Below, in pieces: positions 2,844 through 31,920 of a stretch of 32,000 nt of DNA; positions within the stretch are counted from its first letter, which is position 1, and each line of letters starts with the position of its first letter. The DNA is from Candidatus Saccharimonadota bacterium (GTDB taxonomy: Bacteria; Patescibacteriota; Gracilibacteria; BD1-5; UBA6164). Location of the stretch: the NCBI GenBank assembly GCA_004563595.2, contig CP042461.1, positions 720,001 through 752,000 on the forward strand, read 5' to 3'. Under the pieces are notes generated by a model. It was not told the DNA's origin. It saw nothing but the letters and a program-made list of their open reading frames with translations, and searched no databases. The position numbers and the translations under genes were made by a program.

Positions 2844-3452
2844 ATGAAATTAGTGTTTACATGAATACAAGGTTGTGGGAAATGAACTCAAGCGAGATTT
2901 CTCGTTGAAAACCATGGTTTTACTCTCGTTGAAATGGGGTGAGAATTTAGAAAAATTATAGCAAGTTGAAGTAACTTATGATTACAACTTAAAGAAATAT
3001 TAGACTCATGAGCACAGGTAAATGCTGAAATGTGAATCGCAGTCATGGAAGAAGCTATTGCAAGACAAACAAATGAGAAAATAATATTTGATGCATTTGT
3101 AAGAAATGATTGGAATAAAGTAATTTTTGACAGAGAATTACCGGAATACCAAGTAATTTTCTTTAATTTATCAGAAGAAAAAGCAAAACAAAGGCTTCTC
3201 GGAAGAATGTTTAATTCCACAACAGGTGAGACTTTTCCTTATGGAACAAAAATAGATCCAAAAACAGGAGAAAAACTCATTCATAGAAGTGATGATAATG
3301 AGGAATCTATCCTTAAAAGAATAGAAGAATATACAACAAAAACTCTTCCTATTCTAGAGTTACAAAAAAAAGAATGAAGGGTCCTTGAAATTAATGCTGA
3401 TCAGTCGGTAGAAGAAGTAGCAAAAGAAATTGAAGAAAAACTAGGATTATAA
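2844..3452 (+). CDS. adk: adenylate kinase (202 aa)
   Basis: The protein starts MKLVFTGIQGCGKGTQARFL (P-loop), with two of the P-loop Gly encoded by TGA (2862-2864 and 2883-2885). Also present are HRSDDNEESILKRIEEYTTKTLPIL and EINADQSVEEV. The frame matches track ORF 3045-3377. Confidence 0.9.
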
Positions 3453-3467
3453 TATAATAATAAAACA

Positions 3468-4622
3468 ATGTATTGATTTCTTCTATGAAGAGAGTTTAAA
3501 TTATCTCAAGCTGAATTACTCACTGTATTTTCAAGTAATAGTATTGTATATCAAAGTAAAGAGATTTTGATCTTAGATTGATTAAAAAAAGATGATATTC
3601 TAAATACAGCATCTTTTTTATGATGAACGATTAAAATTATTGAAATAGTTGAATCTGAAGAGACAATAGAAAACCTCATACTTGATTGCGTAAATACAGA
3701 TACAAAATTTAAATATGGTCTGAGTCTCTATGGAGAAAAAAAATCACTCAAAGAAATTCTTAATAAGACAAAGAAACTTCTAAAAGAAGGGTGAATTTCA
3801 TCACGTTTCGTAAACAAAGATTTTAACAACCTCAGTTCAGCTCAAATTAAGTGAGAAAATCTTATAAGAAAAGAAACTGACTTTACTTATATTATAACTT
3901 CAAAAGTAAATTATTTCTGAAAATCTATTTGGGTACAGGATATTGATTCATATTCATCTAGGGATTATTCAAAAGAAAGAGATATGCAGGTTGGTATGCT
4001 TCCACCAAAGTTATCACAAATGATGGTGAATTTATCAGAATGAACTACGGTATATGACCCATTTGTATGACTGGGTACTATCCTCATAGAATCTCTTCTT
4101 ATGTGAAATAAAAAAGTATTCTGAAGTGATCTCAGTGAAAAAATGGTAGAAACGTCTACTGCAAATATCAAGAAACTTATTTCTGAAAAATCACTGAATG
4201 CTGACTTGGATATATTTAAGCTCAATGCTAAATTTATAGAAGAATCTGAGTATTTTAATGAATGAGTTGATGCTATTGTTACAGAGTGATATCTTGGTGA
4301 GATAATGACAAAGAAAAACATTGCTCCTGATAGAGTACAAAAACAAAGGGATCCTCTTGAGAAAATATATCAAGCATTCTTTGCCTGACTACAAAAAATT
4401 AACTATTCATGAGCTATTGTAATATCTTTTCCATTTTGGGAAATCAGATGAAAATATTATTATTTTGACGAGGTATATAAAATACTATGAAAATATTGTG
4501 AAGTACTTCCCTACTTCCCTACTGACTATCAAGTCCAAGCTTCAAAGTCATGAAGTCTATTATATAAGAGACCAAGTCAATTAGTTTGAAGAGAAATATT
4601 TAAATTAAGAATGAAAAAATAA
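3468..4622 (+). CDS. SAM-dependent RNA methyltransferase, UPF0020/Trm11-like (384 aa)
   Basis: The table-25 frame is continuous and contains 20 in-frame TGA codons. Motif I is VYDPFVGLGTILIES. The motif IV region is DAIVTEGYLGE, in place of (D/N)PPYG. The substrate cannot be assigned by eye. Confidence 0.65.
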
Positions 4623-4647
4623 AACACCAAAATTGGTGTTTTTTATT
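4621..4647 (+). terminator. rho-independent terminator after the methyltransferase gene
   Basis: Stem aacacca (4623-4629) pairs with tggtgtt (4634-4640) around a 4-nt loop, followed by a tttttt run. Confidence 0.7.
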
Positions 4648-4674
4648 TGACTTAACAAATAAACATTTTATACT
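4647..4674 (+). promoter_or_regulatory. sigma70-like promoter candidate for the 186-aa membrane protein gene
   Basis: TTGACT (4647-4652), a 16-nt spacer, then TATACT (4669-4674). Confidence 0.35.
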
Positions 4675-4766
4675 TTCCCCGCTATACATTTTAGTATAAA
4701 AAAATCGAGTAGCTAAATGACTATAAATCATTTTGTTATTTATATTTGGGAAAAAGGGGAAAGTTA

Positions 4767-5327
4767 ATGTCTAAAACAAAAATATTTTTTCTTGCAATTT
4801 TTATAGTAATTCTTAATGCACTACCTACAATAGGAATTGTAGTTACTAATTACCTTAACGAAGGCTTGATGCCTCATGTTATTGGATTAATAATGTTTGC
4901 GTGGATAATTGCAACATTCGTAATGGCAGAGTATTTAAGAAATCAAGATACCTTAAATACGATTGACATAGCATCTTCTATACTTTCTTTTGGAGCTGGG
5001 TGTACTTTAGTATTCCATTTCTATGATATGGATATATTAGCTTTGGGAACTATTGGCTCAGTTATTGATTATAATAGAGATTTAACTATCTATACTCAAT
5101 TATTTGGTTCATTCATCGATTCAATTTTGATTGGTATTTTTATAAATTTTTATAAAAATATACGAAAAAAACAAGAATACTCCATAAAAAATGAAGCGGT
5201 TGAAAATAAACAAATCATTGCATTAGAAAATACAATAACTGATTTAGAAGATGACAATACAGATCTGAGGGCAGAACTAGAAAAAAGCAATCGGAAAATG
5301 AATAAAGAATCTGCTATTGCTGCATAA
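4767..5327 (+). CDS. hypothetical multi-pass membrane protein with C-terminal coiled coil (186 aa); TGA-free
   Basis: ATG at 4767 lies 6 nt after the SD-like aagggga. There are 4-5 hydrophobic spans (IFFLAIFIVILNALPTIGIVV and others). The acidic/basic heptad-like tail is ENKQIIALENTITDLEDDNTDLRAELEKSNRK. The gene ends in a double TAA TAA stop. All 9 Gly are GGN. Confidence 0.7.
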   Translation: MSKTKIFFLAIFIVILNALPTIGIVVTNYLNEGLMPHVIGLIMFAWIIATFVMAEYLRNQDTLNTIDIASSILSFGAGCTLVFHFYDMDILALGTIGSVIDYNRDLTIYTQLFGSFIDSILIGIFINFYKNIRKKQEYSIKNEAVENKQIIALENTITDLEDDNTDLRAELEKSNRKMNKESAIAA

Positions 5328-5344
5328 TAATTGACTTAACTAAA

Positions 5345-5378
5345 ATAAAGACTGGATTACTCTAGTCTTTATTTTTTA
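5345..5378 (+). terminator. rho-independent terminator
   Basis: Stem ataaagact (5345-5353) pairs with agtctttat (5364-5372), followed by a T-run. Confidence 0.6.
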
Positions 5379-5531
5379 TATTAACTCACCCTTAATCATA
5401 TATCTAACCAACTCCACTAACTCAACATTTACTAAGTCTCATATTTTCACTCAATCTTCATCTACTTTAAAAACACCTCTTTAAAGTATCTCGTTCTTTC
5501 AAAAACAATATAAGTCCTTGAATCATCAACC
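5376..5531 (-). pseudogene. duplicated, frameshifted 3' fragment of miaB (TRAM-domain end)
   Basis: The minus strand reads ...KVDEDGVKIGDLVNVELVELVRYMIKGELI*, against ...[30 protein letters not shown] at the real miaB end (6240-6396). A 1-nt deletion (tttttt to ttttt) breaks the frame upstream. There is no start codon and no upstream gene body. Confidence 0.75.
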
Positions 5532-5550
5532 AGGTAGAATAATTTTTAAC

Positions 5551-5578
5551 TTGACTTTATAGAAAAATATCCTATATT
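5551..5578 (+). promoter_or_regulatory. sigma70-like promoter candidate for the 177-aa membrane protein gene
   Basis: TTGACT (5551-5556), a 16-nt spacer, then TATATT (5573-5578). Confidence 0.4.
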
Positions 5579-5636
5579 TTTAGTACATTTTTTTAGCATT
5601 AGTCTATTATGAAATAAACAGATTAGGAGAAAAACA

Positions 5637-6170
5637 ATGGTACTTGAAATAAAGCAAGAAACAGCTCTCAAAAATACGAGAAGTATTAATTTTCGTGAAT
5701 GGTTAGACCTATTTAAAAAATTGAAGAAACAAGTAACTTCATTAATAGTACACTGCCTACCCATAATTCTTACTTCATTTATTTATATATTTGATATTTT
5801 TTCAAATATAGGAACTGAATGTATGATAATGACACCTGATACATTTTCTACTGCAAGAGCGATGATATTTACAATACTAATACTATGGGTATTTCGTTCA
5901 AGATTCTTTGCAAGTGATTTAAATCCATCACGAAAGAAAGTATTAACAGGTATTATTAGTTCTATTCTTAATTTCGCATTTATAGTCTGCTGTATGACGA
6001 TAGGGTTAATAGATTATCATCTAGATTCTGGCTTAACTCGCCAAGATTATTATAGTATAATTTTTCTGATTTCTATTGCTAGTATGGCAAATATTGGATT
6101 TGTATTAAATACAAATAGAGAACTCTTTCTCGTAAATAAAAATGTTAATAAAAATAGGGTAGTAAACTGA
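5637..6170 (+). CDS. hypothetical 4-TM membrane protein (177 aa if TGA stops; 203 aa to TAA 6246-6248 if TGA=Gly); TGA-free body
   Basis: ATG lies 6 nt after SD aggaga (5625-5630). The basic N-terminus is followed by four hydrophobic spans. All 5 Gly are GGN. The first in-frame TGA (6168-6170) sits exactly where a standard-code stop would be, just before the terminator hairpin. Confidence 0.7.
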   Translation: MVLEIKQETALKNTRSINFREWLDLFKKLKKQVTSLIVHCLPIILTSFIYIFDIFSNIGTECMIMTPDTFSTARAMIFTILILWVFRSRFFASDLNPSRKKVLTGIISSILNFAFIVCCMTIGLIDYHLDSGLTRQDYYSIIFLISIASMANIGFVLNTNRELFLVNKNVNKNRVVN

Positions 6171-9856: not shown

Positions 9857-11338
9857 TTACTGTCACAAAGTTTTTAAAGTATTTTCTAGTCTCTTAATTG
9901 ATGTATCAAGCCCCAATATATACATCATTTCTAAAGCTCCAGGTGAAAATTCTTCTCACGATAAAGCTACTCTTGTTGGCCATAAAACTTGTCCGTTTTT
10001 CATTTCTGCTTCTTTGATTTTTTCAACAAATACATTTTTTACATCATCCACAGATTCAAAATCAGATGATTGAGATTGTAATACATTTAGAGTAAGTTCT
10101 AATCATTTTTTTACAATATCTAAGTCTGTGATTTTCATTTTTTCATTCATCAATAAATCTGATGATGGATTTTTAGCATCCCCGTAGAAGAAAGTTGTTA
10201 AATTTTGTAGTTCATCAAACTTCTTTATTCTTCATTTAAGCTCTGATAATATTTTTTTATTATATTCTTCTGGAAAACTTTGAAGCAGATCATAAAAATC
10301 TGAATTATATCTTTTTAAGTAGGTTAATAGTTTATTATAAATATCTGAAATATCAGATTTTTTTAAATAATTTGAATTAAAGAAATCTAGTCTTTCTACA
10401 TCAAAGATAGCACCTGATTTATGAACTTGTTTCAAATTAAATTTCTCAATTAATTCATTAATGGTAAAAAATTCATCTGTAGTTTTTGGGTTCCAACCAA
10501 GAAGTGCAATGTAGTTAATAAGAGCCTCGGTTAAATATCCTTTTTCTAAATATTGTTCAACGGCTACATCTCAAGTTCTTTTCGAGAGTTTTTTCTTATC
10601 ACTTCAAAGTAAAAGTGGAATATGTGAAAAAACTGGAGCTTCCCATCAAAAAGCTTCATACATAAGTACATGTTTTGGAGTTGATGGTGTCCATTCATCT
10701 CATCTTATTACGTCAGTAATTCACATTAAATGATCATCTACTACATTTGCAAGATGATAGGTAGGAAACCCATCAGATTTTAACAATACTTGTTCATCTA
10801 TATCTTTAGAATCAACCTCAATTTTTCATTTTACGGTATCATAGAAGATAACTTTTCTCGCTTCAGGAACTTTGAGCCTTACTGTATAGGGAATTCAACT
10901 CTCTAATTTTGCCTGAATTTCATCATCGGATAAATATCTACATAATTTATCATATTTTGTTGCCAATCAAAGTTCTTTTTGTTCTGTTCTAAGATTATCT
11001 AGTCTTTCACTACTGCAAAAACAATAATATGCTTTATCTTTTTCAATCAGTTCATCTATATATTTTCTATATATCTCCAGTCTTTCAGATTGATAATATG
11101 GTCATTTTTCTCATGGATTATTTGGTCCTTCATCTGGAATAAGTCAAACTGAAGCAAGTACATGAATCATATTTTCAATACTCCCTTCCACAAGTCTTGT
11201 TCTATCCGTATCTTCCACACGAAGCATAAACTTCCCATTATGTTTTTTTGCATATAAATAGTTATATAAAACAGTTCTCAAACTTCAAATATGTAAATAT
11301 CATGTTGGACTTGGTGCAAATCTTGTAATTACTGTCAT
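9857..11338 (-). CDS. gltX: glutamate--tRNA ligase (493 aa)
   Basis: HIGH motif is RFAPSPTGYLHIG, with both Gly encoded by TGA. KMSKS-type motif is [17 protein letters not shown] is also present. The frame matches track ORF 10232-10435. Confidence 0.92.
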
Positions 11339-18753: not shown

Positions 18754-18828
18754 ATGAAGACTTATCTAAAGAAAACCATATCATTGTTTTTAATTATTGC
18801 ATTTTTAAGTAGTAACCTTGTTTTTGCT
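18754..18828 (+). other. Sec signal peptide of the 1883-aa protein
   Basis: MKTYLKKTISLFLIIAFLSSNLVFA followed by ENDKK: basic n-region, hydrophobic core, and an A-x-A-like cleavage context. Confidence 0.7.
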
Positions 18829-21800
18829 GAAAATGATAAGAAAATAAGTAAAAAATTAACTGAAAAAGTTAAAACTATCAAAGAAAAGCAGAAGAAAAAA
18901 GAGAAGAAATTTGCTAAAGTAGTTTGAAAGGCAGATACAATTATCAAAAACTATCAGGAAAAAGTCAAAAAAAAATGAACTGGATATAATAAAAGAAATA
19001 AAGAAAAAATAGAGGCTGTTGTTAAAAAAGCAAAGAAAACAAAGCTAAAATTGATTGAAAGAGCAAATGAACTTTTAAAAGATAATCTTGAAAAAGATGT
19101 TGATGAAGAATTAGACTTATGAGTGATCACTTCAAAGGAAGCATGAGATCTCAAGCAAGAAATCCAGCCAAACTACCTCTTTGAGCTGCAAGAATTAGTA
19201 GGGACTGATATAGTTCCTGTAGATACGAATTTTTCAAACCAATGGGGGTTACAAAACATAGTAAATTGAGAAGTATGAAATAAACTCCTCTATACTTGAG
19301 AAAAAGTAACCGTTGCTGTAATAGATACGTGAGTAGATTTCTCTGTAGAAGATTTAAACTGAAAGCAGTGGAAAAGTGAAACTTGTGTAGATAGTGAATG
19401 AATAGCAATTCCAGGTTGATGTATGGAATGATGATATGATTTTGTAGATGATGATACCAATCCCTACCCAAGTGATAACTATACTCACGGAACCAATGTA
19501 TCATGAATCATCTGAGCAAATACAAATAATAGTGTTTGAATATCAAGTATCGCAAATGATAACGTTGAGATCATGAGTTTGAGAGCCTGTTGTGGTCAAT
19601 GAAACTTCTTCTGAGCGAATGATATTAGTAAAGCAATAAAATTTGCGGTGAATAATGGTGCTGATATTATTAATGCCAGCTTTGGTGGGCCTACGGATGC
19701 TCCTGAAATCAAAGAAGCTATAGAATATGCAAATAATGCATGAGTAACCATTGTAGTTGCTGCATGAAACTATGCTTCGAATAATGATACAAATCCAATG
19801 TATCCAGCAAATTATGCTAATGTGCTGAGTGTAGGATCTATAGATAGTACTGAAAATAGTTCATATTTTTCAAACTACTGAAATTCTGTAGATATTGCAG
19901 CTCCAGGCTCTACTGTATATACAGTAGATTTCAATAATACATATAGAACACTGGATGGGACAAGTTTTTCAACTCCTTTTGTTACCAGTGTTGTTGCGAG
20001 ATATAAATCTCAAGATGCCAGCTTATGAGTTGTTGATTTAAAAAATAAATTATTTATTGCTTCTATTCAAAATCCAGCTTTGAGTTGAAAAGTAAATAAT
20101 GGAATGCAGTTAAAGCTTGATGCGAGTAGTATTGAGAAGGCTTTGGTTGAGAGTGGAGAGGTTGTTGTGGAGGAAGAGTTTGATATACCCCTCCCTAACC
20201 CTCCCCTTCCAGGAGAGGGGACTTGAGGTGATGTTAGTTGAATAGAAATTGATGAGAGATATGTGAAGTTTATGAAACAAATTTCAAAGTTAAGAAAGTG
20301 AAAGATTTCTCAAGAAAGTACAAAGGATACGATAAGTCTTCAAGAAGTAAGTGAACTGGAAGCAGAGCTTCAGACTTTTATAACTTCTGAAAGAGTCAGG
20401 CTTCTTTCTATTAATGGAGTTGATGAACTGAAAATATCTCGTTATATATCATTACTCAACGATCAACTTGATCTCGTAAAAAACTATAATACTACTATTA
20501 ATAATGAATCCAACCAAACAACAGTACAAAGTAGCTCAGTCCAAGATTTTCAAGCATTTTCAATAGAAACCCTCTCAAATCTAGGAATAGAACAAAAAGA
20601 AGCTTCAAAAGATATTCAAACTCTTTCTGATATGAGTTCTTTTAGTTTCTGAGATAGCGTGGAGAATATAGGAAGGCTTTCAGATTATAAAATGATTTTA
20701 GAAAGTAGAGTTCCAACCTCATCAGAAGAAATATCATTTTTAGCTACAGAGTCTTTTGTCCCTGTTCAATTAGAAGACTTACAAGAGAATGAAGAAGTTA
20801 TCATTTCTTCAGACATACAAGACCTAGCAACAGAGTTACATAATAATCCTGTTTCTATATTTAATTATGTTAAAAATAATATAGAGTATGAACCATACTC
20901 AGGAGTAAAGAAAACATCTACTCAGTGTCTGAGAGATAGATCATGTAATGATTATGATAGCTCTTCCCTTCTTATATCACTCCTCAGAGCTTCTGGAATC
21001 CCAGCAAGATATAAACAAAGTCATATTCTCGTATGAAAAGACAATGTAAATAAACTCCTCTGAGTATCTGATATTAAATCAGCATATTACGCATTATCTC
21101 AAGGAAAAATTCCTGTATATATAATGAGCAATGGGAGTCCTATTGATAGCAATTTTGAAACTGCTGATTTCTCAGGAGTCACTCAACTCGTTGTAAAATG
21201 GACCTTTGCAGAAATGTATTATGACTATGATCATAGGTGAGCAAATCATAGTAATGATGTATATTTTTCTGATATTACTACTCAGGCTGAATTAGATACA
21301 AGGCTTGTTGATTACTCTAATAGAGAATGGTTAAAGATAGATCCAACTTTCAAGTTTACTCTCGTTTGAAATGAGGTTTCTGATTCTCATGTAATAGAAG
21401 ACTCTACCATTGATACTCACACATTCTTTGAATCATATTTACAAACCTGAGATACTGATTGAGCATTAGAAGCTTATAAAAAGAAACTTATAGAAACTTC
21501 TCCTGCAACTGATGATACAGAATTAGCTTTATACAATTTCAATAAAAATAATCAAAATACTCACTTTGAAATGCTTCCAGTTACTTTTCCTTATTCTCGT
21601 ATTACATGAACAACAAGCAGTGGAGTAATAATAGAAGATAGTGCTTTTTCTACTATCTCAGATACTGAAAAACAAAAAATAGAAATAGAATTGAAAGACT
21701 CAACTACTTGAAGCGTAGTTCTAAAAAAATCATATAAAGTTACTGAAATAAATAATATTCCTCTCGATCTTCATTATCAATGAGCAACTCAAGCTGATAT

Positions 21801-24405
21801 AGATATTATAGAGAGTTATGGAAGTCTTCATTTAACTCCGAGTAATCTTGTAAATATACAACCAGCGTTTGTATGAGCGGAGTTTAACACTGTTGAATGA
21901 GAAACAATCACAGATAATATTCCTGTGAAAATTTGAGATCAATTGATTCTTACTTTTAGATATTTTGTAAATGGAGTAGAAACAAATGTAAGTTCAAAAT
22001 TTTCGACTGCATGAAATAGAGAAGGTATCTACTTAAACTTCTCAAAAATTGTTTCTGATACTATGGATACTGATTCAAAAGTACTCTTAGCATGAAACTG
22101 GGCTATTGCGAAAAAATATCTTGAAAGACTTGAAATAGCAAGTAATGAACTAGAGCAAATCTTTAATAGAGAAAATACTCTCAACTATTCAAGAGCTGTA
22201 GTTACACAAAATAGAATACTCAATGAAATAAATGGAGATCCTACTACTTTTGAATTTAAATGACTTACTCTTGATGCTCATAGTTATATTGGTGATTACT
22301 ATAGATGAACTGATTTAACGAATTCATATAAAAAGTATTCAAGTGAATTTTGAAAAATCTATGGACTCTATGCTTCAGAGCAAGAAGGACAAATCTTTGA
22401 TGATATTACAGGGTTAACTGGTATCTCAACAGTAAAAGGTCTTCAATATGCATATGCAAATCCTGCAGACTATACCATTCATAAAATTGATAGTTCAAAT
22501 AAATCAGTTATTGATAGTCTTATACTTTCTGAGAATACTAAGACTCTTATGGGAGCTTATGTAGATGAGTGAAGAACTATTACAACACCAAATAAGTTGG
22601 TGAAAAATCAAACTTGGGAAGGTTTGTTTTATACTGCAATTGATAGTGATGGAGAATGAGTGTATGCGATTGGTGAAGGGGTTGCGCAGAATGGTGGGTT
22701 TAGTGTTGATGAAATGCTTGATATGTGAGAAGGAGTAAATGGAGCTCTTATTGCTTGTATAGAAAATTGAGCAACAGAATTACTCGCAAATACCTGTAGT
22801 GCATTTAAAAATTATGAAACAGTTAACTTTAGTTATAGATGAATAGTAAAAAGTAATGATGAACAATCTGTAAAAGACTTATTTTCGTGGGAAGAAAGTA
22901 ATGGACAATTGATAACAACGAGTTATTTAAATTATGGATACCATAATCTTCTATTTACTAAAAATTGAGTTATTTTTGATAACTCATGAAAGGAAATAAA
23001 AAACTGAGATTATAAATATTTTATCTCATATTCTGATATCTCTACAAAACTCAAAAATCATTTTTCTGACCTAGAAAAAATGCACCTTTCTTTAGATGTA
23101 TGAACTTTTTTCTCAGATATAACATCAAGTGAGTATATATATTATTCTCCAAATCCTAATGCTGGAAATGTCTATTCTGTAAAGTGAGCTTTTTTAAAAA
23201 AGCTTAAGAAAACGTATCGTAAATGAGAGGTAAATACAGTTCAAGAATTACTTTGATTCCCAACTTGAGATGAATTATGATGAACAACAATAGAAAGCAA
23301 TGTTGGTTACAAGTATAAATCTCAACCATTTATAAATGGAAATTTATACAGATATGAAAATTTTTATAATATATTTCCTAATACCGTTTATACATACTGA
23401 GCCCTAGAAGAAACCCTTACTAATAATTGATCTGTGACAGCTCTATGACTCCCCGCAGATGATCCAGATTTCTCTGGTAAAAATGATATTATTCAAGAGT
23501 ATGATAGTTGAGTGTTAATAAAGTTAAATCAAGATTGAGAAACAAACTTAGTGTCAGATAAAAGATACGCTTGTTATTTAGCTAATAATTCTGAAATTAC
23601 AAGTAAAACAAAATTAAGACTTGCATTAATTCACTGATTTTTTTCAGAAATTCAAGACGTAATATGATTAGTCCCCGAATTGATTTTTGGAATATCAAAA
23701 TGAATTATAAGATCTGATTTAGAAATTAGAAAAACAGAATTTTATCTTGATGACATAAAAGATTTATTAATTGAAGTAAGTAAGATAAGGCTTAGTTCAA
23801 TAAAAAACTTTTTTCTAGCTACCTGAAATGGTATTTGAAGTGCTTTATATGATGAAATGAATAGTAGTGATACTACTTGTCCTCTCAGAGAAAGCTATGT
23901 GATTTGAAAAATATGGTGAACATTTGTAACGGCATGATTATGATGAGTATGAACTGCAACAAAAATTGAAAAGATTAACGAAGCAAAAAGATTAGCGAAA
24001 TTAATTAATGCATGAAAATTTGATGATATTGTAAAAGCCAAAAAATTTGCAGATGGTAAATTTAATATAAATTGATTTTATGAATTGAATTATCATTTCT
24101 GAAAACATGGTGAAAATTTTTGATTAAACGTAGATAATTTAAATTTAAAATACAAATATCAAGAAATAGCAGAAAAATTTATAATTAAAGGGGGCTGAAA
24201 TAATGTACTTGAATTTTTACAAAAATCATGAAACGCACATGATTATATTAGAATTAATTATAGTGATGAAATAATTTGAATCTACCGTTTAGAAACAAAA
24301 GAAATTACAACTTTCTTTGAGTTTGACAATATAGATAATATGAATTCTAAAATAAAACAAATACTAAATAATATAAATACAAGTAAAATTTCTTGAAACT
24401 ATTAA
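18754..24405 (+). CDS. giant secreted multidomain protein (1883 aa): signal peptide, Lys-rich coiled coil, subtilase S8, transglutaminase-like domain, long unknown region, distinct C-terminal module (polymorphic-toxin-like)
   Basis: A single table-25 frame was verified at 19324, 20659, 21901, 22981 and 24001 (all in the same phase) and ends at TAA 24403-24405. See the domain sub-features below. Confidence 0.85.
19240..20130 (+). other. peptidase S8 (subtilase) domain with an intact Asp/His/Ser triad
   Basis: Asp is in VAVIDTGVD (codon 19324-19326, with the following Gly encoded by TGA at 19330-19332). His is in HGTNVSGIIGA (19486-19488). The oxyanion Asn is in AAGN (its Gly is TGA at 19765-19767). 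Ser is in GTSFSTPFVTSVVA (19963-19965). Confidence 0.9.
20188..20232 (+). repeat. G+C-rich hairpin-like patch inside the coding sequence, related to the arms of the 18314-18512 element
   Basis: The sequence cccctccctaaccctccccttccaggagaggggacttgaggtg is about two-thirds G+C, in a gene of roughly 30% G+C. It shares ctcccctt, aggagag and gaggtga, in the same order, with the inverted-repeat arms. It encodes PLPNPPLPGEGTGGD in a linker. Confidence 0.35.
20850..21360 (+). other. transglutaminase-like (papain-fold) core domain
   Basis: RSCNDYDSSSLLISLLRASGIPARY carries the Cys at 20944-20946. It is followed by WTFAEMYY and EWLKIDPTF (Asp present). The position usually occupied by the catalytic His aligns by eye with Trp. 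Confidence 0.7.
24040..24402 (+). other. C-terminal module of about 120 aa, candidate toxin domain (family not recognised)
   Basis: FNINGFYELNYHFGKHGENFG carries an H-x2-K-H motif at 24094-24108. It follows a Gly-rich hydrophobic segment, IWGTFVTAGLGGVGTATKIEK. It sits directly upstream of two small paralogous genes. Confidence 0.4.
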
Positions 24406-24422
24406 TTTTTAACTTTACTAAT

Positions 24423-24824
24423 ATGGAAAATAGAACTTACGTTTGCCCAAATTGTTGATTTAATGATTTAGCATGAACATATAGTGTATGTAGGGTATGT
24501 ATGTGGGAGGAAGATTTAGATTGAAAAATATATCCCCTTATAGCAACTTGACCTAATAATAGCTTGTATGATGAACAACAAAAAATTATAAAAAAATATC
24601 CATTATCGATCAAAAAAACTATTTTTTTTGATAAGTATGAGAATAAAAATTTTATGATAATGCGATCAAGTAGTTGGAAGCCAATAGATATAGGAGATAT
24701 AAAATATAAAGATAAGCCTTTCATTGAAAAATGGTATTATGAAGATTATATAAAATCTATTTATTGAGATGATTACAATCATTTATTTGAAGAAGCTCAA
24801 GAATATAACCCTACTGATTATTAA
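24423..24824 (+). CDS. CPCC-type cysteine-rich zinc-ribbon protein (133 aa), candidate immunity protein 1
   Basis: MENRTYVCPNCGFNDLAGTYSVCRVCMWEEDLDG...GPNNSLYDEQQ matches the CxxC...CxxCxWE(D/E)D signature of the Cysteine-rich CPCC domain. The C-terminal part reads KDKPFIEKWYYEDY...EAQEYNPTDY. Confidence 0.8.
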
Positions 24825-24965
24825 AGTAAAAAAATGATTGAAGAATTTTGAGAAATATGAACGTTTTATTAATTTGAATCATTAGAAAAGCAAATTAGTA
24901 AAATTGAGTGAATAGTTAGTAGATGAATAATTATTTCTTGAAAAAAATAAATTTTAACTTTATAT

Positions 24966-25343
24966 ATGAAAACAGAATATTTTATGTGTATATGTTGTTG
25001 ATTTTATACTTTAAAAAACCCTTTTGACTCCGAGGGTATTTGTAAAGTTTGTAAGTGGCAAGATTCAGCTAATGATAAATTTTATCCTTATTCAACATGA
25101 TGAGCAAACATTGATAATTTAGTGAATTCACAAGAAAAATTAGGATTTCTAAATGGTATGAAAGAATTTGATTGATATATTAGAAACCCTAATTGGAAAT
25201 TACTTACTGGAATCAAAATTAAAGATAAACCTTATGTTGAAAAATGGTTTTATAAAGATGTACTAGAAATTTATAACTCTGAATATTACGAAAAAATCTA
25301 TAAAGAAGCCCAAAAATATAACCCTACTGATTATGAAATATAA
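24966..25343 (+). CDS. CPCC-type cysteine-rich zinc-ribbon protein (125 aa), candidate immunity protein 2 (paralog)
   Basis: The N-terminus is MKTEYFMCICCGFYTLKNPFDSEGICKVCKWQDS...GGANIDNLVNSQE. The shared C-terminal part reads KDKPYVEKWFYKDV...EAQKYNPTDYEI. Confidence 0.8.
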
Positions 25344-25663
25344 AGATTTCTTTAAAAGTTTTCTAAAAATGATTATCTGAACAATGGTATGATATATGAT
25401 TTGAATGTTAGTTATTATATGATTATTTTTATTATATGTATATATAGCACTTCCTACAAAAATCTGATACTAAAATATTGATTTAAAACTTTATAATAAT
25501 TACAAATACATGATAAATTTTAATAAATACATTGATTTACATAAGAGTTTAGCCAATGAAAAATTCATATCAGAAGCAAAAAGGATTTCTAAAAAATTAA
25601 ATAGTATTTGAATTATTGAAATATAAAAAAAATAAAAACCCTTAAAACTATAAAAACTTCTAA

Positions 25664-28600
25664 ATGAAATTTAAAAAACTACTATCCCTACTAACCATCT
25701 CAACACTCCTCATATCTACAACGAACTTACAACACGTAAACGCAAACGTAGATATAGGTTTTGATGTGAGTAATGCAAATGAAATAAATATCCCTGCATT
25801 TCCTGAGGATATTGATACAGCTCCTACTGATTGGTCGGAGACAGATTGGGATTCAGAGACTATCCTCCCTGCAGATAAATTTGCTTATGAAAAGAAACTT
25901 GAAGAGCTTCTAAATGCAGGTGATTTTGAAGCTGTAAAAAATCTGGAGATGAAAAAGACTTCTCTGTCTGATGATGCCTCACTTGAAATCTATGATGTAC
26001 CAAAAGAGGTGCAAGAAGTAGTAAAAGATCATTATGAAAATAGTGGTTGAATTTCTGTACAAGGAGTCTGAAAACCCCTTACATTAAAAGAAAAATTACA
26101 AAAACTCCCTTCTCCTTACAAAGGAAAGGAGCTTGATGTGAGGTCTGAAGATCTTACAATAGAAAAAGAACTCCCTGAAATTTCAAAAAATAAATTGAAA
26201 ACAGTGAAGAAAAAATCACTCCAAGCAATCTCTCTTGGGAAAGCGAACATTTGAAATCTACAATTAGAGGAGCAAGTTGAAAAAGATAGAAGTATTTCTC
26301 TTCAAGGAGTTAATACTCCACTTATAGAATACTATGACGGAATCAGTAATAATAATGTTGATTATGCATTATACTCCCTTACCTCTCTTCAATCTGAAAA
26401 TGGTCTGATATGAAACTCTAGCAGAAATACCTATGAGTTTTTACAACTTTTAAAATCATTTAAGAAAACAGATAACTCAGCATATTACAAAGCAAAGAAT
26501 TACTTTCTCAATCTCGTACCAAGAAATAACCTAGAACTCGTATACAAAATACAAGTTATGAAAGATGAATGACAAGATTATTCTTCTCTTGTAACAAGCC
26601 TCAAAAACTCGATGAACTCAGATAAAGGATACCCTCTTTTAGAAGGATATGATTCTGATATTTATACTAGTATTGAAACTCTCAATCTCCTCACTGATCT
26701 CAATGACTCAGCATACATTGATCCTATGAATTATATACTTTGAAATATTTGATCTACTGGAGAAATTAAATATTACCTTGATTGATGAAAAAATAGTTCT
26801 CTCCTTTCATACAAAGTATTACAAACACTGGAAAAACTTACATTTGCTGATAAAGATACTTATATCACAAAAATACGTGATAACTTAGCTATAAATAGTG
26901 AGAGAAGTACACTAGAGTCATCTCTATACGGTCTTTTACTTGAAAAAGATGGAAATGTACTCGATGAAGTTCAATTCATGAAAAATGACTTAAAAAAACT
27001 TCAATCTTATGACTGAAGTTTTACTGATGATCTGACTACTATATACACTTCCCTCTTTCTTGCTGAAGCTGATTTAGTCATTGAATCCGTTACTCCAGTT
27101 TGAACACTCAAACATAAAGATGCTGCAAAACTTACGGTAACAATTAAAAATAATGGATATAAGAAATCTCTCCCTGTATGAATCCATACATATACAAATA
27201 AATATTATCATGCATGAAAAGCAACAGCTATTAGTGATAGTATAGATTCAAATAGTACTGTCATATTCGAACTTGATTTCAGTTCAACCCCTAGATTTAA
27301 GTGAGATGTAGAGTTTGATTTTTTCCTTGATAATCAAGGAGATATAAATTATGAAGATAATTGGTTCAACTCAGCATTTAATTTTGTAAATACTTCTGAT
27401 AATTCCCCAGTACTTCCGATGAATTATTCAGCTTTCTCACACGAAAGTAGTGCATGACTTGGAATTGCGGCTATTTGGAATGATACTGGTGATATAGATC
27501 TACAAGAATATGTAGTACTTGTAAGAAATAAAGGAGAGTCTGATTGGAAAGAAATTGTATTGAATAAAACTCTCTACCCTGAAGGTGCCTTTATCTCATG
27601 ATTTAATGAATGAGATAAAGTGGAGGTAACAATGTGAGTAAGATTAGCTGATAGCACACTCTCATATTTTTCAAATTTTTCTGAGTTTACTATTACTCCG
27701 ACAGCCAATAAGCTCACTTCTAATGTAAATTGAAAACTATACTCAAATAAACTCTGAGTATATAATGAACTCTTAAAGTGAAATTGATACAGTACAACTT
27801 CTGAACCAGGTTGAGATTTTGATATCTCAGTTCCTGCTTGAAAAACTATTATATCTATTGATAAAGGCTCAGGATACGAGAGCTTTGAAAATAGTATTAC
27901 TGCTGATGGAGTAACTGACATAACTTGATATGAATATCATACAAGACTCAAAGTTGATGCAGAAAAACCAGTAATGTCAGATTTAAAATTTAATGATAAT
28001 TTTGCTATAAAAAATAGGAAAACAAAAAATATTATTATATCATGAACTGATAATATAGGCATTAGAGAGTTTCATTTATATTATTATGATCCAGAATATG
28101 CTTCTTGGATATTTGAAAATAGTATGACTCCTGATTATGGACAATCCACTTATACTTGGAGTATTCCAGAAACTCTTCTCTGAACTTGATATAAACTCAA
28201 AACTGTTGCTATAGATTACAAATGAAATGAGTCTCTCCCACTTGAATATGGTCCATTTGAGATAATAGATTGAACAGCTCCAGAATGAACCATTGAAATC
28301 ACATGATTAGAGGCATGAAGCAAATGGAAACTTTGAGATACAAAAGAGTTTACTTGGAACGTAGATCTTGTTTATGATCTACAGCAAATAGTAAATGTAA
28401 AACTCCATTATGAAAATGCGTTCACATATATTGCGAATTCTATTGATGTAATAAAAACATCTGAATCATATACTATCCCTATTGATTCAAAGTATTTGGC
28501 AAATGTCTGATATATAAGCTTACTGGCTTGTGATGTACAAAATAACTGTAGTACACTTGAGTCACCAAGATTTGAAATATATGAAGAAGAGTTCCAGTCA

Positions 28601-29896
28601 AAATGACCATGGAATCAACCAAGTGATATATGAATAAGTCTCTCAAACTGAAATTACAATAGATATATAGAAAAAGTATTTTTCTGAGAAAATGAAACTA
28701 TAGAAGTTATATTTTCTGAATTTGATAAATATACTTGAAGAGACTATAGACTCGTATATAGAAAATATGAAAACTGAGTTTGGTGAGATGAACAAGTAGT
28801 AAAACAATATAATAATCCAAGTAGTTGACCTTCTCATTCATTTAATTCAATAAAGAGTGTGAAACTAGGAAATAAAATTTGAATTACTTACAGTGATTTT
28901 TACAAAGACCTCACTGCTTCATGATTTGGATATGATGAGTCTGAAATATATGCGATAACTATTGAGAATAGTATTCTTGGAAATCTGACACAAATAAGTA
29001 ATGATACAACTCTTTCATATAATCCTGAATTAGAATTTGATGACAATGGTTTATATGTAATATGGAAAGAATGATATAGTATTACTACAGAAACATGAAA
29101 TAGGAAATTAAAATTACGAAAGGCAGATATAAACTGAATATGGAATAATGAAATTATACTGAGTGAAGATTCAGTTTCATACTATGATTTAGAATATCAA
29201 AATAATAGATTATTTATTTCATATGTATTTGAAGATAATCTGAAACTAAAAGAATATAATTACTCTACAAGCACTTGGAATAATGAAATTCTCATAGGAG
29301 CAGAAACCGGAATAAAAGAAAACAAAATATTTCACAGAAATGGTACAGAAATATATGATCTATTTCTGAAAAAAATTACACCTAACACAACAGGTTTAGA
29401 GAAATATCATCTCATTCACAAGAAAGTAGATCTCACTTGATGAACTGCAAATATATTATTAGAGAAAAATATAACAGCAGCTTCAGATTTAGAAAGCCTT
29501 CAAAAATATACGATTGAAAATAAAGATGGTACTACATATCACCTTGTTTATACAAAACTTTCTCTTACTGAAAACGGGGATAAAATTAGTATAAATTATT
29601 CAGAATATGGAGATAATTTAAATACAAACTATTTAGTTCTCTCTCCTGCTACAAATATAATTTCAGGATCTAATTACTTGTTTACTAGCAAATTAAATGA
29701 TGTGTTAAAACTATGATATGTTTCAACTATCTGATGAGTAACTAAATTACAATATGTCACATGAGATTTTACTCCAAAATCATCTGAATTTAGTTTTCCT
29801 GAATTTGACATTGACGTAACAATGAATCTCAATGAATTTAGAGTTACATTCATATTCCTCTGATACAGATTTAGTTTCTGGCTAAATTTACTTTAA
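25664..29896 (+). CDS. large secreted surface protein (1410 aa): prenyltransferase-like alpha/alpha repeats, CARDB-like and Ig-like beta domains
   Basis: Signal peptide is MKFKKLLSLLTISTLLISTTNLQHVNA. The table-25 frame was verified at 27599, 28622 and 29879 and ends at TAA 29894-29896. It extends track ORF 25664-26050. Confidence 0.85.
26330..27060 (+). other. prenyltransferase/terpene-cyclase-like alpha-alpha toroid repeats
   Basis: Recurrent Q/S-x2-(D/N)G-aromatic repeats: LQSENGLIGNS, NSDKGYPLLEG, GSTGEIKYYLDGG and LQSYDGSFTDD. Confidence 0.4.
27068..27330 (+). other. CARDB-like domain
   Basis: ADLVIESVTPVGTLKHKDAAKLTVTIKNNGYKKSLPVGIHTY... matches the usual DLvv-x-vtvtvkNqG pattern. Confidence 0.5.
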
Positions 29897-29934: not shown

Positions 29935-31920
29935 ATGAAAAAAATACTTTCAATACTTTTGATTTTCTGATTATTACTTCAAAGTTTATTTGTTACAGGT
30001 ACTGCTTATGCAGTAGAAGAAACAACTGTAGATATTGATGGATTATATATGCCTCAATTTGAAGATCCTCTTTTTAAAGAAAATTTTCTAAACAATATAA
30101 TCAAAAATAACTGATTTAATTTACAAGCAGGAGATAACTGAATACCAATTACTACACATGGAGCAAACTATCCTACATACTCTCCTGATGGGAACTATAT
30201 TGTTTATTCTAATAAAGATGGTTCACACTATATATATAAAAAAAATAGTTCTGATAATTCAACTGGTATCCAGTTAGGAACAAAAATAAGTCGAGCTCTT
30301 GTTTATACTCCTGATGGTAATAATCTTATATATACAAATTATAATGATTGATATGCTATATATAAGAAAAGTGCTAATGATCTTGCTAACTGAAACTGAA
30401 TTACAAATTATTATTGATATTACCCTCAAGTTTCACCTGATTGAAATGATTTATATTTTGTAATAAAATGATCTAATACTTATAAAGTCTATAAAAAAGC
30501 AATAAATGCACCAATAAATGACTGAGATCTAATAATTGATAAAGAAGTATACTGGATATCACTTTCTCCAGATTGAAATAATTTAATATATAAAGACTGA
30601 GCTAATAATCTTTTATACAATAGAGATTTAGTAAATAACACAACTAAACTAATTACAAGTGTTGGTTGAGCAACATTCACATATTCTCCAGATTGAAAAT
30701 ACCTAATTTATACAAATGAAAGTGATTGATATAAACTTTACAAAAAAGATCCAAACACCTTGTCTAATGGGACGGCAATAAATAGTGTATCTTCATTCTA
30801 CCCTGCATTTTCTCCTGATTGAAAATACTTAGTTTATACGAATATCAGTGATGGATATAAAATGTATAAAATTGAGATGCCTTTTGTCACTGAACTATGA
30901 TCAATAACATCTACTCAAACAGTTATTAATTCTAATAATGAAAATTCAGTAGATTTTTCAATTAGCTGAATTAAGGATACAGATAGTGGAAATACAATCA
31001 CTTATAGCTATTCTTTTAATAATTCCACTTTTACAAATCTACCTGTTACAAATACAAGTCCAATATCAAATGGGACTTATAATTTTAATTTAGATTTATC
31101 AAGTAGACCATCTTGAGATATTACGGTATATATAAGAGCAAATGATGGAAGCGAAAATTCTAATGTAGTAAGTATAACTCTTGTAAAAAATAATACCCCT
31201 ATTCTTGATTCATTAACTTCAACTCAAACAGATATAAACTTAGATAATGTTTTAAGTCTAGATTTAAAAGTGAATTGAATCAATGATCCTGATACATCAA
31301 ACACTCTAAGCTATAGTTACTCTTTTGATAATATCGATTTTACTGATTTAACGGATACTTGAATCTCACCAATTTCAGATGGAAATTATAATTTTGATTT
31401 AAATCTCTCATGACAAGATGATGGATTAGTCAACATATATGTAAAAACAAATGATTGATATGAAAATTCAAACACGGTAAGTTTAGCTTTAAATAAAAGT
31501 GCTACATTATTAGTCCCAACTGCACCTTCAGCTGTGAATACAAATAATATATCATTAAACTGAGCAACATATAGTTGGACTGATAATTCAGAAGGTGACA
31601 ATAGAGAGTATAAACATGTCATTAAAGATCAAGATAATAATATTATAGTTGATGAAATTTGAGCAAATGCTACAAATATTATAGAATCATGATTAACTCC
31701 AAATACGTCATATCAAAGAAAAATATGTGCAGTAAATGATGCATGAGAAGCTTGTAGTATACTAATAAATTTTACTACAAAAATAGAAGTAACATGATGA
31801 AAAACAACTACCTTTGACTTTGCATGAATTGTCATCAATATTGTTGAAACACTTGAGATGTTTAAAGTAGAATTTAATATCTGAGAATTTAAAATTAATT
31901 TTAGTATTGAAAAGATATAA
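29935..31920 (+). CDS. secreted TolB-like beta-propeller protein with tandem Ig-like repeats and an FN3-like domain (661 aa)
   Basis: Signal peptide is MKKILSILLIFGLLLQSLFVTGTAYA. There are six PD40-type blades (YSPDGNYIVY, YTPDGNNLIY, VSPDGNDLYF, LSPDGNNLIY, YSPDGKYLIY, FSPDGKYLVY). The frame ends at TAA 31918-31920. Confidence 0.85.
30150..30880 (+). other. six PD40 (WD40-like) beta-propeller repeats
   Basis: The x-SPDG-x-x-L-(I/V)-Y ... Y-K-(I/L/V)-Y-K-K periodicity repeats six times. Several of the SPDG Gly codons are TGA. Confidence 0.8.
30901..31518 (+). repeat. intragenic tandem duplication: two 309-nt (103-aa) Ig-like units
   Basis: Unit 1 (30901-31209) reads SITSTQTVINS...YSYSFNNSTFTNL...ISNGTYNFNLDLS...VYIRANDGSENSN. 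Unit 2 (31210-31518) reads SLTSTQTDINL...YSYSFDNIDFTDL...ISDGNYNFDLNLS...IYVKTNDGYENSN. Confidence 0.8.
31516..31780 (+). other. fibronectin type III-like domain
   Basis: PTAPSAVNTNNISLNGATYSWTDNSEGDNREYKHVIKD...GLTPNTSYQRKICAVNDAGEA fits the FN3 pattern of a conserved W, a T-x-Y and an A-x-N-x-x-G. Confidence 0.55.

Follow-up and report, generated by a model that had tools for sequence, protein, structure and literature searches.

The window analysed here is a 32,000-nucleotide stretch of contig CP042461.1 (assembly GCA_004563595.2, positions 720,001 to 752,000 of the forward strand) from Candidatus Saccharimonadota bacterium, which GTDB places in the Gracilibacteria. Two small genes for cysteine-rich proteins of the CPCC family lie in it directly downstream of the gene for a giant secreted protein, and the relation of these two paralogs to the C-terminal end of the giant is the subject of this analysis. 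An initial annotation made from the DNA sequence had taken them for a candidate immunity array. The features of the locus, numbered from the first letter of the window, are as follows.

18754..24405, forward strand: gene of the giant secreted carrier, 1883 aa, called as an open reading frame (ORF) under genetic code 25.
24040..24384, forward strand: predicted toxin domain, aa ~1763-1877 of the giant, found with the family hidden Markov model (HMM) at E 3.1e-30, the window sequence itself being in the model.
24388..24417, forward strand: first copy of a 30-nt leader, comprising the giant's last codons, its stop and the ribosome-binding region, found by local DNA alignment.
24423..24824, forward strand: CPCC paralog 1, 133 aa, code-25 ORF, PF14206 at 32.2 bits.
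24933..24962, forward strand: the leader's second copy (30 nt), immediately upstream of paralog 2, found by local DNA alignment.
24966..25343, forward strand: CPCC paralog 2, 125 aa, a diverged duplicate, code-25 ORF, PF14206 at 37.2 bits.

The locus can be read only with the proper genetic code. Code 25, in which TGA encodes glycine, is known from Gracilibacteria and Absconditabacteria, and its use in the window follows from the housekeeping genes, because their in-frame TGA codons sit at universally conserved glycines: the conserved positions in 'PSPTGYLHIG' of GluRS and 'GCGKGTQ' of adenylate kinase require TGA to be Gly (example ORFs lie at 9857-11338 and 2844-3452). With table 11 most window genes were fragmented, and the giant gene and both small ORFs were all absent. 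The sizes and positions given for the small ORFs by the initial annotation, with starts 18 nt and 561 nt past the stop of the giant gene, were reproduced under code 25 only. The G+C content of the window is 24-32%. In public databases proteins of the window type are stored as code-4 translations with W replacing G (for example P0001), and pipelines using the wrong genetic code miss such loci altogether.

Both small proteins were assigned to the CPCC family by the Pfam search that the initial annotation had proposed, each passing the gathering threshold of Cys_rich_CPCC (PF14206, 24.5 bits) with a match that spans only residues ~6-57. The motifs by which they had been recognised were all found, CPNC...VCRVCMWEEDLD...GPNNSL in paralog 1 and CICC...ICKVCKWQDS...GGANIDNL in paralog 2, as was the common C-terminal segment KDKP[FY][IV]EKW[YF]Y...EAQ[EK]YNPTDY. 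Their paralogy was evident from BLASTP (34% identity, E = 7e-23, far beyond chance), the identity being 34-39% overall, and the N-termini of both, inspected by eye, were without a hydrophobic stretch, in line with the lack of a signal peptide noted earlier. The cysteines of the zinc ribbon, which are C8/C11/C23/C26 for paralog 1 and C8/C11/C26/C29 for paralog 2, vary little or not at all within the subfamily, and the paralogs presumably bind zinc. Acidic motifs follow the knuckles, 'CMWEED' (WEED) in paralog 1 and 'CKWQDS' in paralog 2. After the N-terminal ribbon, paralog 1 continues into a C-terminal extension made of a beta-hairpin and a long helix; a Foldseek search with both AlphaFold models found no PDB counterpart of the extension. 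No terminator was detected between the giant gene and paralog 1, and a promoter and terminator scan of the locus returned promoter-like sites at background frequency and zero terminators. A further ORF of 46 aa (25333-25473, forward strand), predicted to contain a single membrane helix (MKYKDFFKSFLKMIIGTMVGYMIGMLVIIGLFLLYVYIALPTKIGY), begins ahead of the paralog 2 stop with an overlap of 11 nt; syntenic L005 lacks a counterpart, and the ORF may be spurious.

Both partners of the window pair were found to match chains of a single crystal structure. PDB entry 8EY4 is titled 'Contact-dependent growth inhibition toxin-immunity protein complex from E. coli O32:H37' and entry 8EY3 'CDI immunity protein from E. 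coli O32:H37' (CDI, contact-dependent growth inhibition), both released on 2023-11-08. The CPCC subfamily profile matched 8EY4_I ('Cys_rich_CPCC domain-containing protein') at E 6.3e-10 and 8EY3_A at 7.5e-10, and paralog 1 alone matched 8EY4 chain I at E 6e-5 in phmmer. The predicted folds agreed with these matches. The AlphaFold model of paralog 1 (pLDDT 92, pTM 0.84) had 8EY4_I as its top Foldseek match, with prob 1.00, TM 0.85 and an rmsd of 1.3 A over 56 columns; the model of paralog 2 (pLDDT 80) also had 8EY4_I at the top (prob 1.00, TM 0.74), followed by 8EY3. On the toxin side, a family profile of 7 sequences including that of the window matched 8EY4_A, labelled 'PT-VENN domain-containing protein', at E 2.9e-6, and a profile of 25 sequences built without the PDB sequence matched it over its full length at E 7.8e-34. 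The arrangement of the genes is also that of a CdiI-type pair, the toxin-HMM match stopping at 24384, the giant at 24405 and paralog 1 beginning at 24423. As judged from these sequence and model comparisons, the window pair is homologous, partner for partner, to the crystallised toxin-immunity complex. The view of the initial annotation that a zinc ribbon acting as immunity element for this module had not been characterised was wrong structurally, since the 8EY4 complex and 8EY3 came out in 2023; no relevant paper was found on CPCC/PF14206 immunity, 8EY3/8EY4, CDI in E. coli O32:H37 or polymorphic toxins of Gracilibacteria.

The domain at the end of the giant bears the signature 'NYHFGKHGENFG ... 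Y..IA..F ... EITTFFEF'. In the toxin alignment H21 and Y42 never vary and H25 and T93 almost never do (in an alignment of seven tails both His and the Tyr of the motif 'H..KH...Y' are invariant), and the family member farthest from the rest is the window toxin, with 12-34% identity to the others. The family of 8EY4 chain A is without a Pfam or NCBIfam model. The remainder of the giant consists of a Sec-type signal sequence, MKTYLKKTISLFLIIAFLSSNLVFA|E (judged by eye), a Peptidase_S8 subtilase domain at aa 182-433 (PF00082, 3.4e-45), a transglutaminase-like core at aa 697-753 (PF01841, 7e-8) and a long uncharacterised middle that precedes the toxin domain; Peptidase_S8 and Transglut_core are its only Pfam domains. 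The combination of signal peptide, subtilisin and transglutaminase-like domain is a listed architecture of Sec-exported polymorphic toxins (Zhang et al. 2012, PMC3482391), and the giant is, as in the polymorphic toxins defined there, a large exported protein with a C-terminal toxin domain common to unrelated carriers. It is not a CDI carrier, as Pfam found none of the VENN, haemagglutinin or TPS domains in it and no CdiB-like gene was present among the window ORFs.

Relatives of the paralogs were sought by a HMMER search with the database form of paralog 2 (P0001) over 1.84 billion representatives at E <= 0.001, and only 29 proteins were found. The full-length two-domain CPCC form occurred only in W-rich proteins, which points to TGA-recoded genomes. 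A profile search gave 17 members with contigs, which were re-called under code 25 for analysis of their context; a search for related loci with the alignment of the code-25 subfamily confirmed none in genome or metagenome collections. Several of the re-called loci, designated by L numbers, repeat the arrangement of the window.

L004/L005, syntenic with the window: giant tail, two CPCC genes, then a secreted protein of ~1417 aa.
L002: subtilase protein of >2036 aa with a toxin tail ('HYSKHGKEF...GTFHK'), CPCC gene 3 nt on.
L002, 5776-8947: three orphan cassettes, each headed by the junction peptide 'MMAIEKKLKKLKIVLKLK'.
L002, orphan cassette 1: a second toxin of the window's family, then a CPCC gene.
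L002, orphan cassette 2: Colicin_D (PF11429, 1.7e-16), then an 82-aa helical non-CPCC protein.
L002, orphan cassette 3: EndoU fragment.
L006: toxin to CPCC junction, and a frameshifted orphan toxin ahead of a third CPCC gene.
L008 and L009-L011: toxin to CPCC junction repeated.
L009, 3-751: a different toxin tail ('...VIEHMNESGRFIPVTMLKEVILKGNF...') behind the junction peptide 'MMAIEKKLKKLKIVLKLK', then an 89-aa non-CPCC protein.

Altogether the toxin tail is followed by a CPCC gene within 0-5 nt (18 nt in the window itself) at 8 independent junctions, namely those of the window, L005, L002 (two), L006 (two, one of them the frameshifted orphan), L008 and L009, and other toxin types in the same arrays have non-CPCC partners. 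Across six independent code-25 metagenome loci, no toxin tail of this family lacked a CPCC gene at that short distance behind it. The two-CPCC-gene layout recurs in L004/L005 and L001. The orphan cassettes of L002, L006 and L009 restart with the junction peptide of the main gene, 'MMAIEKKLKKLKIVLKLK', and orphan cassettes that restart at a common junction peptide are a hallmark of polymorphic-toxin recombination. The designation as an array holds for L002, L006 and L009, with their orphan cassettes behind the conserved junction; the window itself has one toxin and two CPCC genes, that is, an extra immunity paralog and no orphan toxin. The giants of the window and L005 were also compared as possible strain variants, and this reading was rejected: no sharp drop of identity was seen at the toxin boundary, and since ~35% identity runs throughout, the two are divergent orthologs.

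Other forms of the CPCC module were seen among the code-25 relatives. Two CPCC modules are fused in one polypeptide in P0004, P0005, P0010, P0011, P0022 and P0027, and P0005 has an additional N-terminal domain of ~190 aa without known identity. A small Cys-rich protein of L002 ('CRICGF...CTCCG...') has only the 'EAQKYNPDERVHLDC' tail in common with the CPCC relatives, and because this non-CPCC protein carries it, the tail behaves as a separable module; the tail and fusion variants lie at 7378-7689 in L002 and at 2699-2962 in L006. The end of the L002 contig carries an rve integrase fragment. In L003 (389-1197, contig start, 34.5% G+C) a gene with CPCC and tail follows a 129-aa unknown ORF, not a toxin, and this locus may be part of an immunity-only gene cluster.

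The association of toxin and CPCC gene extends to genomes with the standard code. Scanning of species-representative genomes led to 586 confirmed CPCC loci of the classical type, 80 of which were kept for analysis. The toxin HMM matched 29 of these 80, and 34 of 80 after one iteration, nearly always adjoining the CPCC gene. In the toxin-first loci the domain forms the extreme C-terminus of PAAR + Pyocin_S, RHS, DUF637/CdiA, TcdB/RHS and PT-TG proteins, and the CPCC gene, coding for 64-100 aa, typically overlaps the toxin stop codon. RefSeq annotations give the same order in E. coli, where in 54 of 5426 complete genomes a protein annotated as 'hemagglutinin repeat-containing' or as 'VENN motif pre-toxin' precedes one named 'CPCC family cysteine-rich protein', and the E. 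coli CPCC genes lie within typical CDI orphan arrays. The similarity of toxins and that of their adjacent CPCC proteins were correlated in Mantel tests (r 0.70, p 2e-4 for 19 pairs; r 0.46, p 0.016 for the 12 standard-code pairs). The co-variation of C-terminal type with partner type, which the initial annotation had suggested surveying in related genomes, was thus seen both in this correlation (r 0.70) and in the non-CPCC partners of other toxin types.

A reversed order was observed in Clostridia, with the CPCC gene first and then an ORF of 110-240 aa that has the toxin domain at its end (L016, L022, L023, L028, L042, L044, L062, L065, L074 and L086, around 4400-5950 in most). In several of these loci CPCC makes up, in frame, the last ~55 aa of an otherwise unrelated protein, which is a CHASE-HisKA-HATPase-receiver kinase in L062/L074, a TMEM164 protein in L028 and an FMN reductase in L016. 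The reversed loci have the look either of a two-gene CPCC and toxin cassette that has inserted at gene 3' ends, or of a variant resembling toxin-antitoxin (TA) systems.

Between the two paralogs lies a spacer of 141 nt, whose last part is the second leader copy. In the alignment of the two copies, ATTTCTTGAAA..A.TAA.TTTTAACTTTA, the observed score was reached by 3 of 2000 dinucleotide shuffles. The rest of the spacer had no significant similarity to the 3' end of the giant gene (z = 0.4) and no toxin-HMM match. A decayed orphan toxin tail between the paralogs ('EIGTFY*FES...ISGKK*') was considered and rejected, as only the proximal 30 nt were similar and the toxin HMM was silent.

We interpret the locus as what would be the toxin-immunity end of a polymorphic toxin exported by the Sec route, in a code-25 bacterium belonging to the Candidate Phyla Radiation (CPR). 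The giant protein would carry a toxin cassette of ~100 aa at its extreme C-terminus, of a family that other phyla have on CdiA, Rhs, PAAR/pyocin-S and PT-TG proteins; the protease domain of the carrier presumably releases the cassette, and the activity of the toxin is probably that of an RNase of the colicin-D/BECR kind, though the evidence for this activity is weak. Paralog 1, lying 18 nt downstream, would be translated from the transcript of the giant gene, and its zinc ribbon with the CPCC fold would bind the toxin one-to-one, blocking it in the producer and in recipient siblings. Paralog 2 would have arisen by duplication of the immunity gene and its 30-nt leader, followed by divergence, and would serve most likely as orphan immunity against a variant toxin of neighbours or else as redundancy. 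We put the probability that paralog 1 is the cognate immunity protein for the C-terminal toxin of the giant at roughly 0.85; presumably it binds and neutralises the toxin physically in the Gracilibacteria host. Both CPCC genes are very probably immunity genes for the tail toxin. The immunity function proposed by the initial annotation is supported by the match of both partners to chains of 8EY4 and by the recurrence of the toxin-CPCC adjacency in related and unrelated genomes.

Several observations weigh against this interpretation. The window toxin alone has no PDB match, and its assignment depends on the family profile: single-sequence searches with the C-terminus of the giant gave no match in Pfam, NCBIfam, the PDB (phmmer) or a word-index protein search. 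A relationship of the toxin to Colicin D (PF11429) could not be established, with no Pfam hit, PDB chains of Colicin D matching only below threshold (E 0.12-0.83) and an HHalign probability of 5.5% against the Colicin_D cassette. The core of the window toxin is not basic, so that no simple complementarity of charge between it and the acidic zinc ribbon can be seen. The Mantel correlation is partly confounded by phylogeny. No orphan toxin remnant was found before paralog 2 by DNA alignment or the toxin HMM, and the role of paralog 2 is for this reason a conjecture. Finally, 46 of the 80 classical CPCC loci are without this toxin family and have heterogeneous, unrelated housekeeping genes as neighbours; CPCC proteins are hence not always toxin-linked, and the many CPCC genes that stand alone are orphan immunity genes or have another role. 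The initial annotation had held that conservation of CPCC genes at unrelated loci, independent of toxin-like neighbours, would speak against immunity. Such loci do occur in the wider family (the same 46 of 80), but not in the subfamily of the window.

The two paralogs could also share the work differently, in that paralog 2, or both CPCC proteins as a heterodimer or redundantly, neutralise the resident toxin, so that paralog 2 would not be an orphan. The two-CPCC-gene layout is kept in the syntenic L004/L005 and in L001, the relatives with two fused CPCC modules suggest that two modules can cooperate, and the duplicated 30-nt leader implies that both genes are probably expressed alike. The immunity partner in 8EY4, however, is a single CPCC chain of 58-70 aa, many toxin-CPCC junctions have one CPCC gene only (L008, L009 and the toxin-first standard-code loci), and the 34-39% identity of the paralogs is typical of different specificities. 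We regard such sharing as unlikely, yet worth keeping in view. It is improbable that the locus is a vestige in which the toxin tail or the CPCC genes are nonfunctional and kept since the giant surface protein is needed, for adhesion or proteolysis. Neither polymorphism nor orphan cassettes were seen in the window, and its toxin is the family member that has diverged furthest, as such a vestige might have; but the residues H21, H25, Y42 and T93 are all retained in it, both CPCC ORFs are intact with the four zinc ligands kept and confident models, and in L005 all three genes are still present at ~35-50% identity, which implies purifying selection over a long divergence. An intracellular addiction pair rather than an interbacterial weapon has somewhat less to recommend it and is most improbable here, as the resemblance to type II TA operons belongs to the Clostridia loci, with CPCC first and a small toxin ORF of 110-240 aa without an obvious carrier, whereas in the window the toxin forms the end of a protein of 1883 aa with a signal peptide, and related toxins are carried by CdiA, Rhs and PAAR proteins. 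That the CPCC genes encode general housekeeping or regulatory zinc-ribbon proteins and adjoin the toxin by coincidence, for which the 46 of 80 classical loci with heterogeneous context and the lack of a function for PF14206 in Pfam might be cited, is scarcely credible given that both partners match two chains of one crystal complex and that the adjacency recurs at 8 code-25 junctions and in 34 of 80 other genomes, with practically no toxin-HMM matches expected by chance.

The conserved C-terminal extension occurs in TGA-recoded lineages alone, makes the CPCC immunity protein twice as large and is without a structural match. Tentatively, and with considerable doubt, it may be suggested that the extension is a new functional module and the tandem paralogs a small immunity repertoire; the extension could, for example, give the immunity protein a broader or an altered toxin specificity, or anchor it to the very large carrier ahead of export. 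If this were true, the repertoire would let a genome-reduced episymbiont survive the variant toxins of its neighbours, while its own toxin is aimed at competitors or hosts. More generally, the matches suggest a function, toxin immunity, for the widespread PF14206, which RefSeq and Pfam name only by sequence, and they define its partner toxin family, for which neither Pfam nor NCBIfam has a model despite the crystal structure, so that both partners are under-annotated. They further suggest that toxin-immunity cassettes of Proteobacteria and Firmicutes occur also in code-25 CPR bacteria, which bears on competition or attack by tiny host-dependent cells. What is new here is the CPR host, the carrier with Sec signal, subtilase and transglutaminase-like domain, and the C-terminal extension that doubles the immunity protein.

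The neighbours of the locus in the window include SecDF, a VTT-domain protein and CARDB and PD40 proteins. Downstream, on the forward strand, lie a large signal-peptide protein of 1410 aa with a CARDB-like domain (25664-29896), which is syntenic in L004/L005 (1417 aa), and a signal-peptide protein of 661 aa with PD40 beta-propeller repeats and fn3 (29935-31920). Both proteins terminate with a like short motif ('...EF[RK]V.F.....F.....').

Among known systems, the CdiA-CT/CdiI pair of E. coli O32:H37 resembles the window pair on both sides. The window toxin resembles chain A, with the common signature 'H..KHG.EF ... RT.F.P', at only ~15-20% identity to the E. coli toxin, chain I is matched in sequence and fold by the first ~56 residues of both paralogs, and in both systems the immunity gene directly follows the toxin on its 3' side. 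Delivery differs. E. coli uses the CdiB/CdiA type V route with a VENN pre-toxin motif, whereas the window carrier is a Sec-exported subtilase/transglutaminase-like giant in a CPR host, and only the toxin/immunity cassette is common to the two. The E. coli CdiI has 58-70 aa, in contrast to the 125-133 aa of the window proteins with their extra domain ('R..xWKP...KPYIEKW.Y...EAQKYNP'), and the immunity gene of the window is tandem-duplicated, as in L001 and L004/L005. With Colicin D/ImmD (PF11429; PDB 1V74, 1TFO) the window toxin shares a small C-terminal cassette of the nuclease type with 'KH..[DE]FG' near its start; Colicin D chains were the only recurrent sub-threshold PDB matches of the toxin profile, and a genuine Colicin_D cassette stands in the same L002 orphan array as the CPCC-linked toxins. 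This similarity is not significant, however, and the partner of Colicin_D in L002 is a helical non-CPCC protein. Compared with PF14206 at large, where the proteins are recorded in Pfam and RefSeq with no functional annotation ('CPCC family cysteine-rich protein'), both paralogs keep the two CxxC knuckles and the W-E/Q-D/E motif, but paralog 1 has CPNC for CPCC and the model covers only the first ~50 residues. The layout as a whole agrees with the Sec-dependent toxins of Zhang et al. 2012, in which a signal peptide, a subtilase, an (inactive) transglutaminase-like domain and a C-terminal toxin are followed by an adjacent immunity gene; the main text of PMC3482391 names neither the toxin family of the window nor CPCC immunity, and the host of the window differs by its use of code 25.

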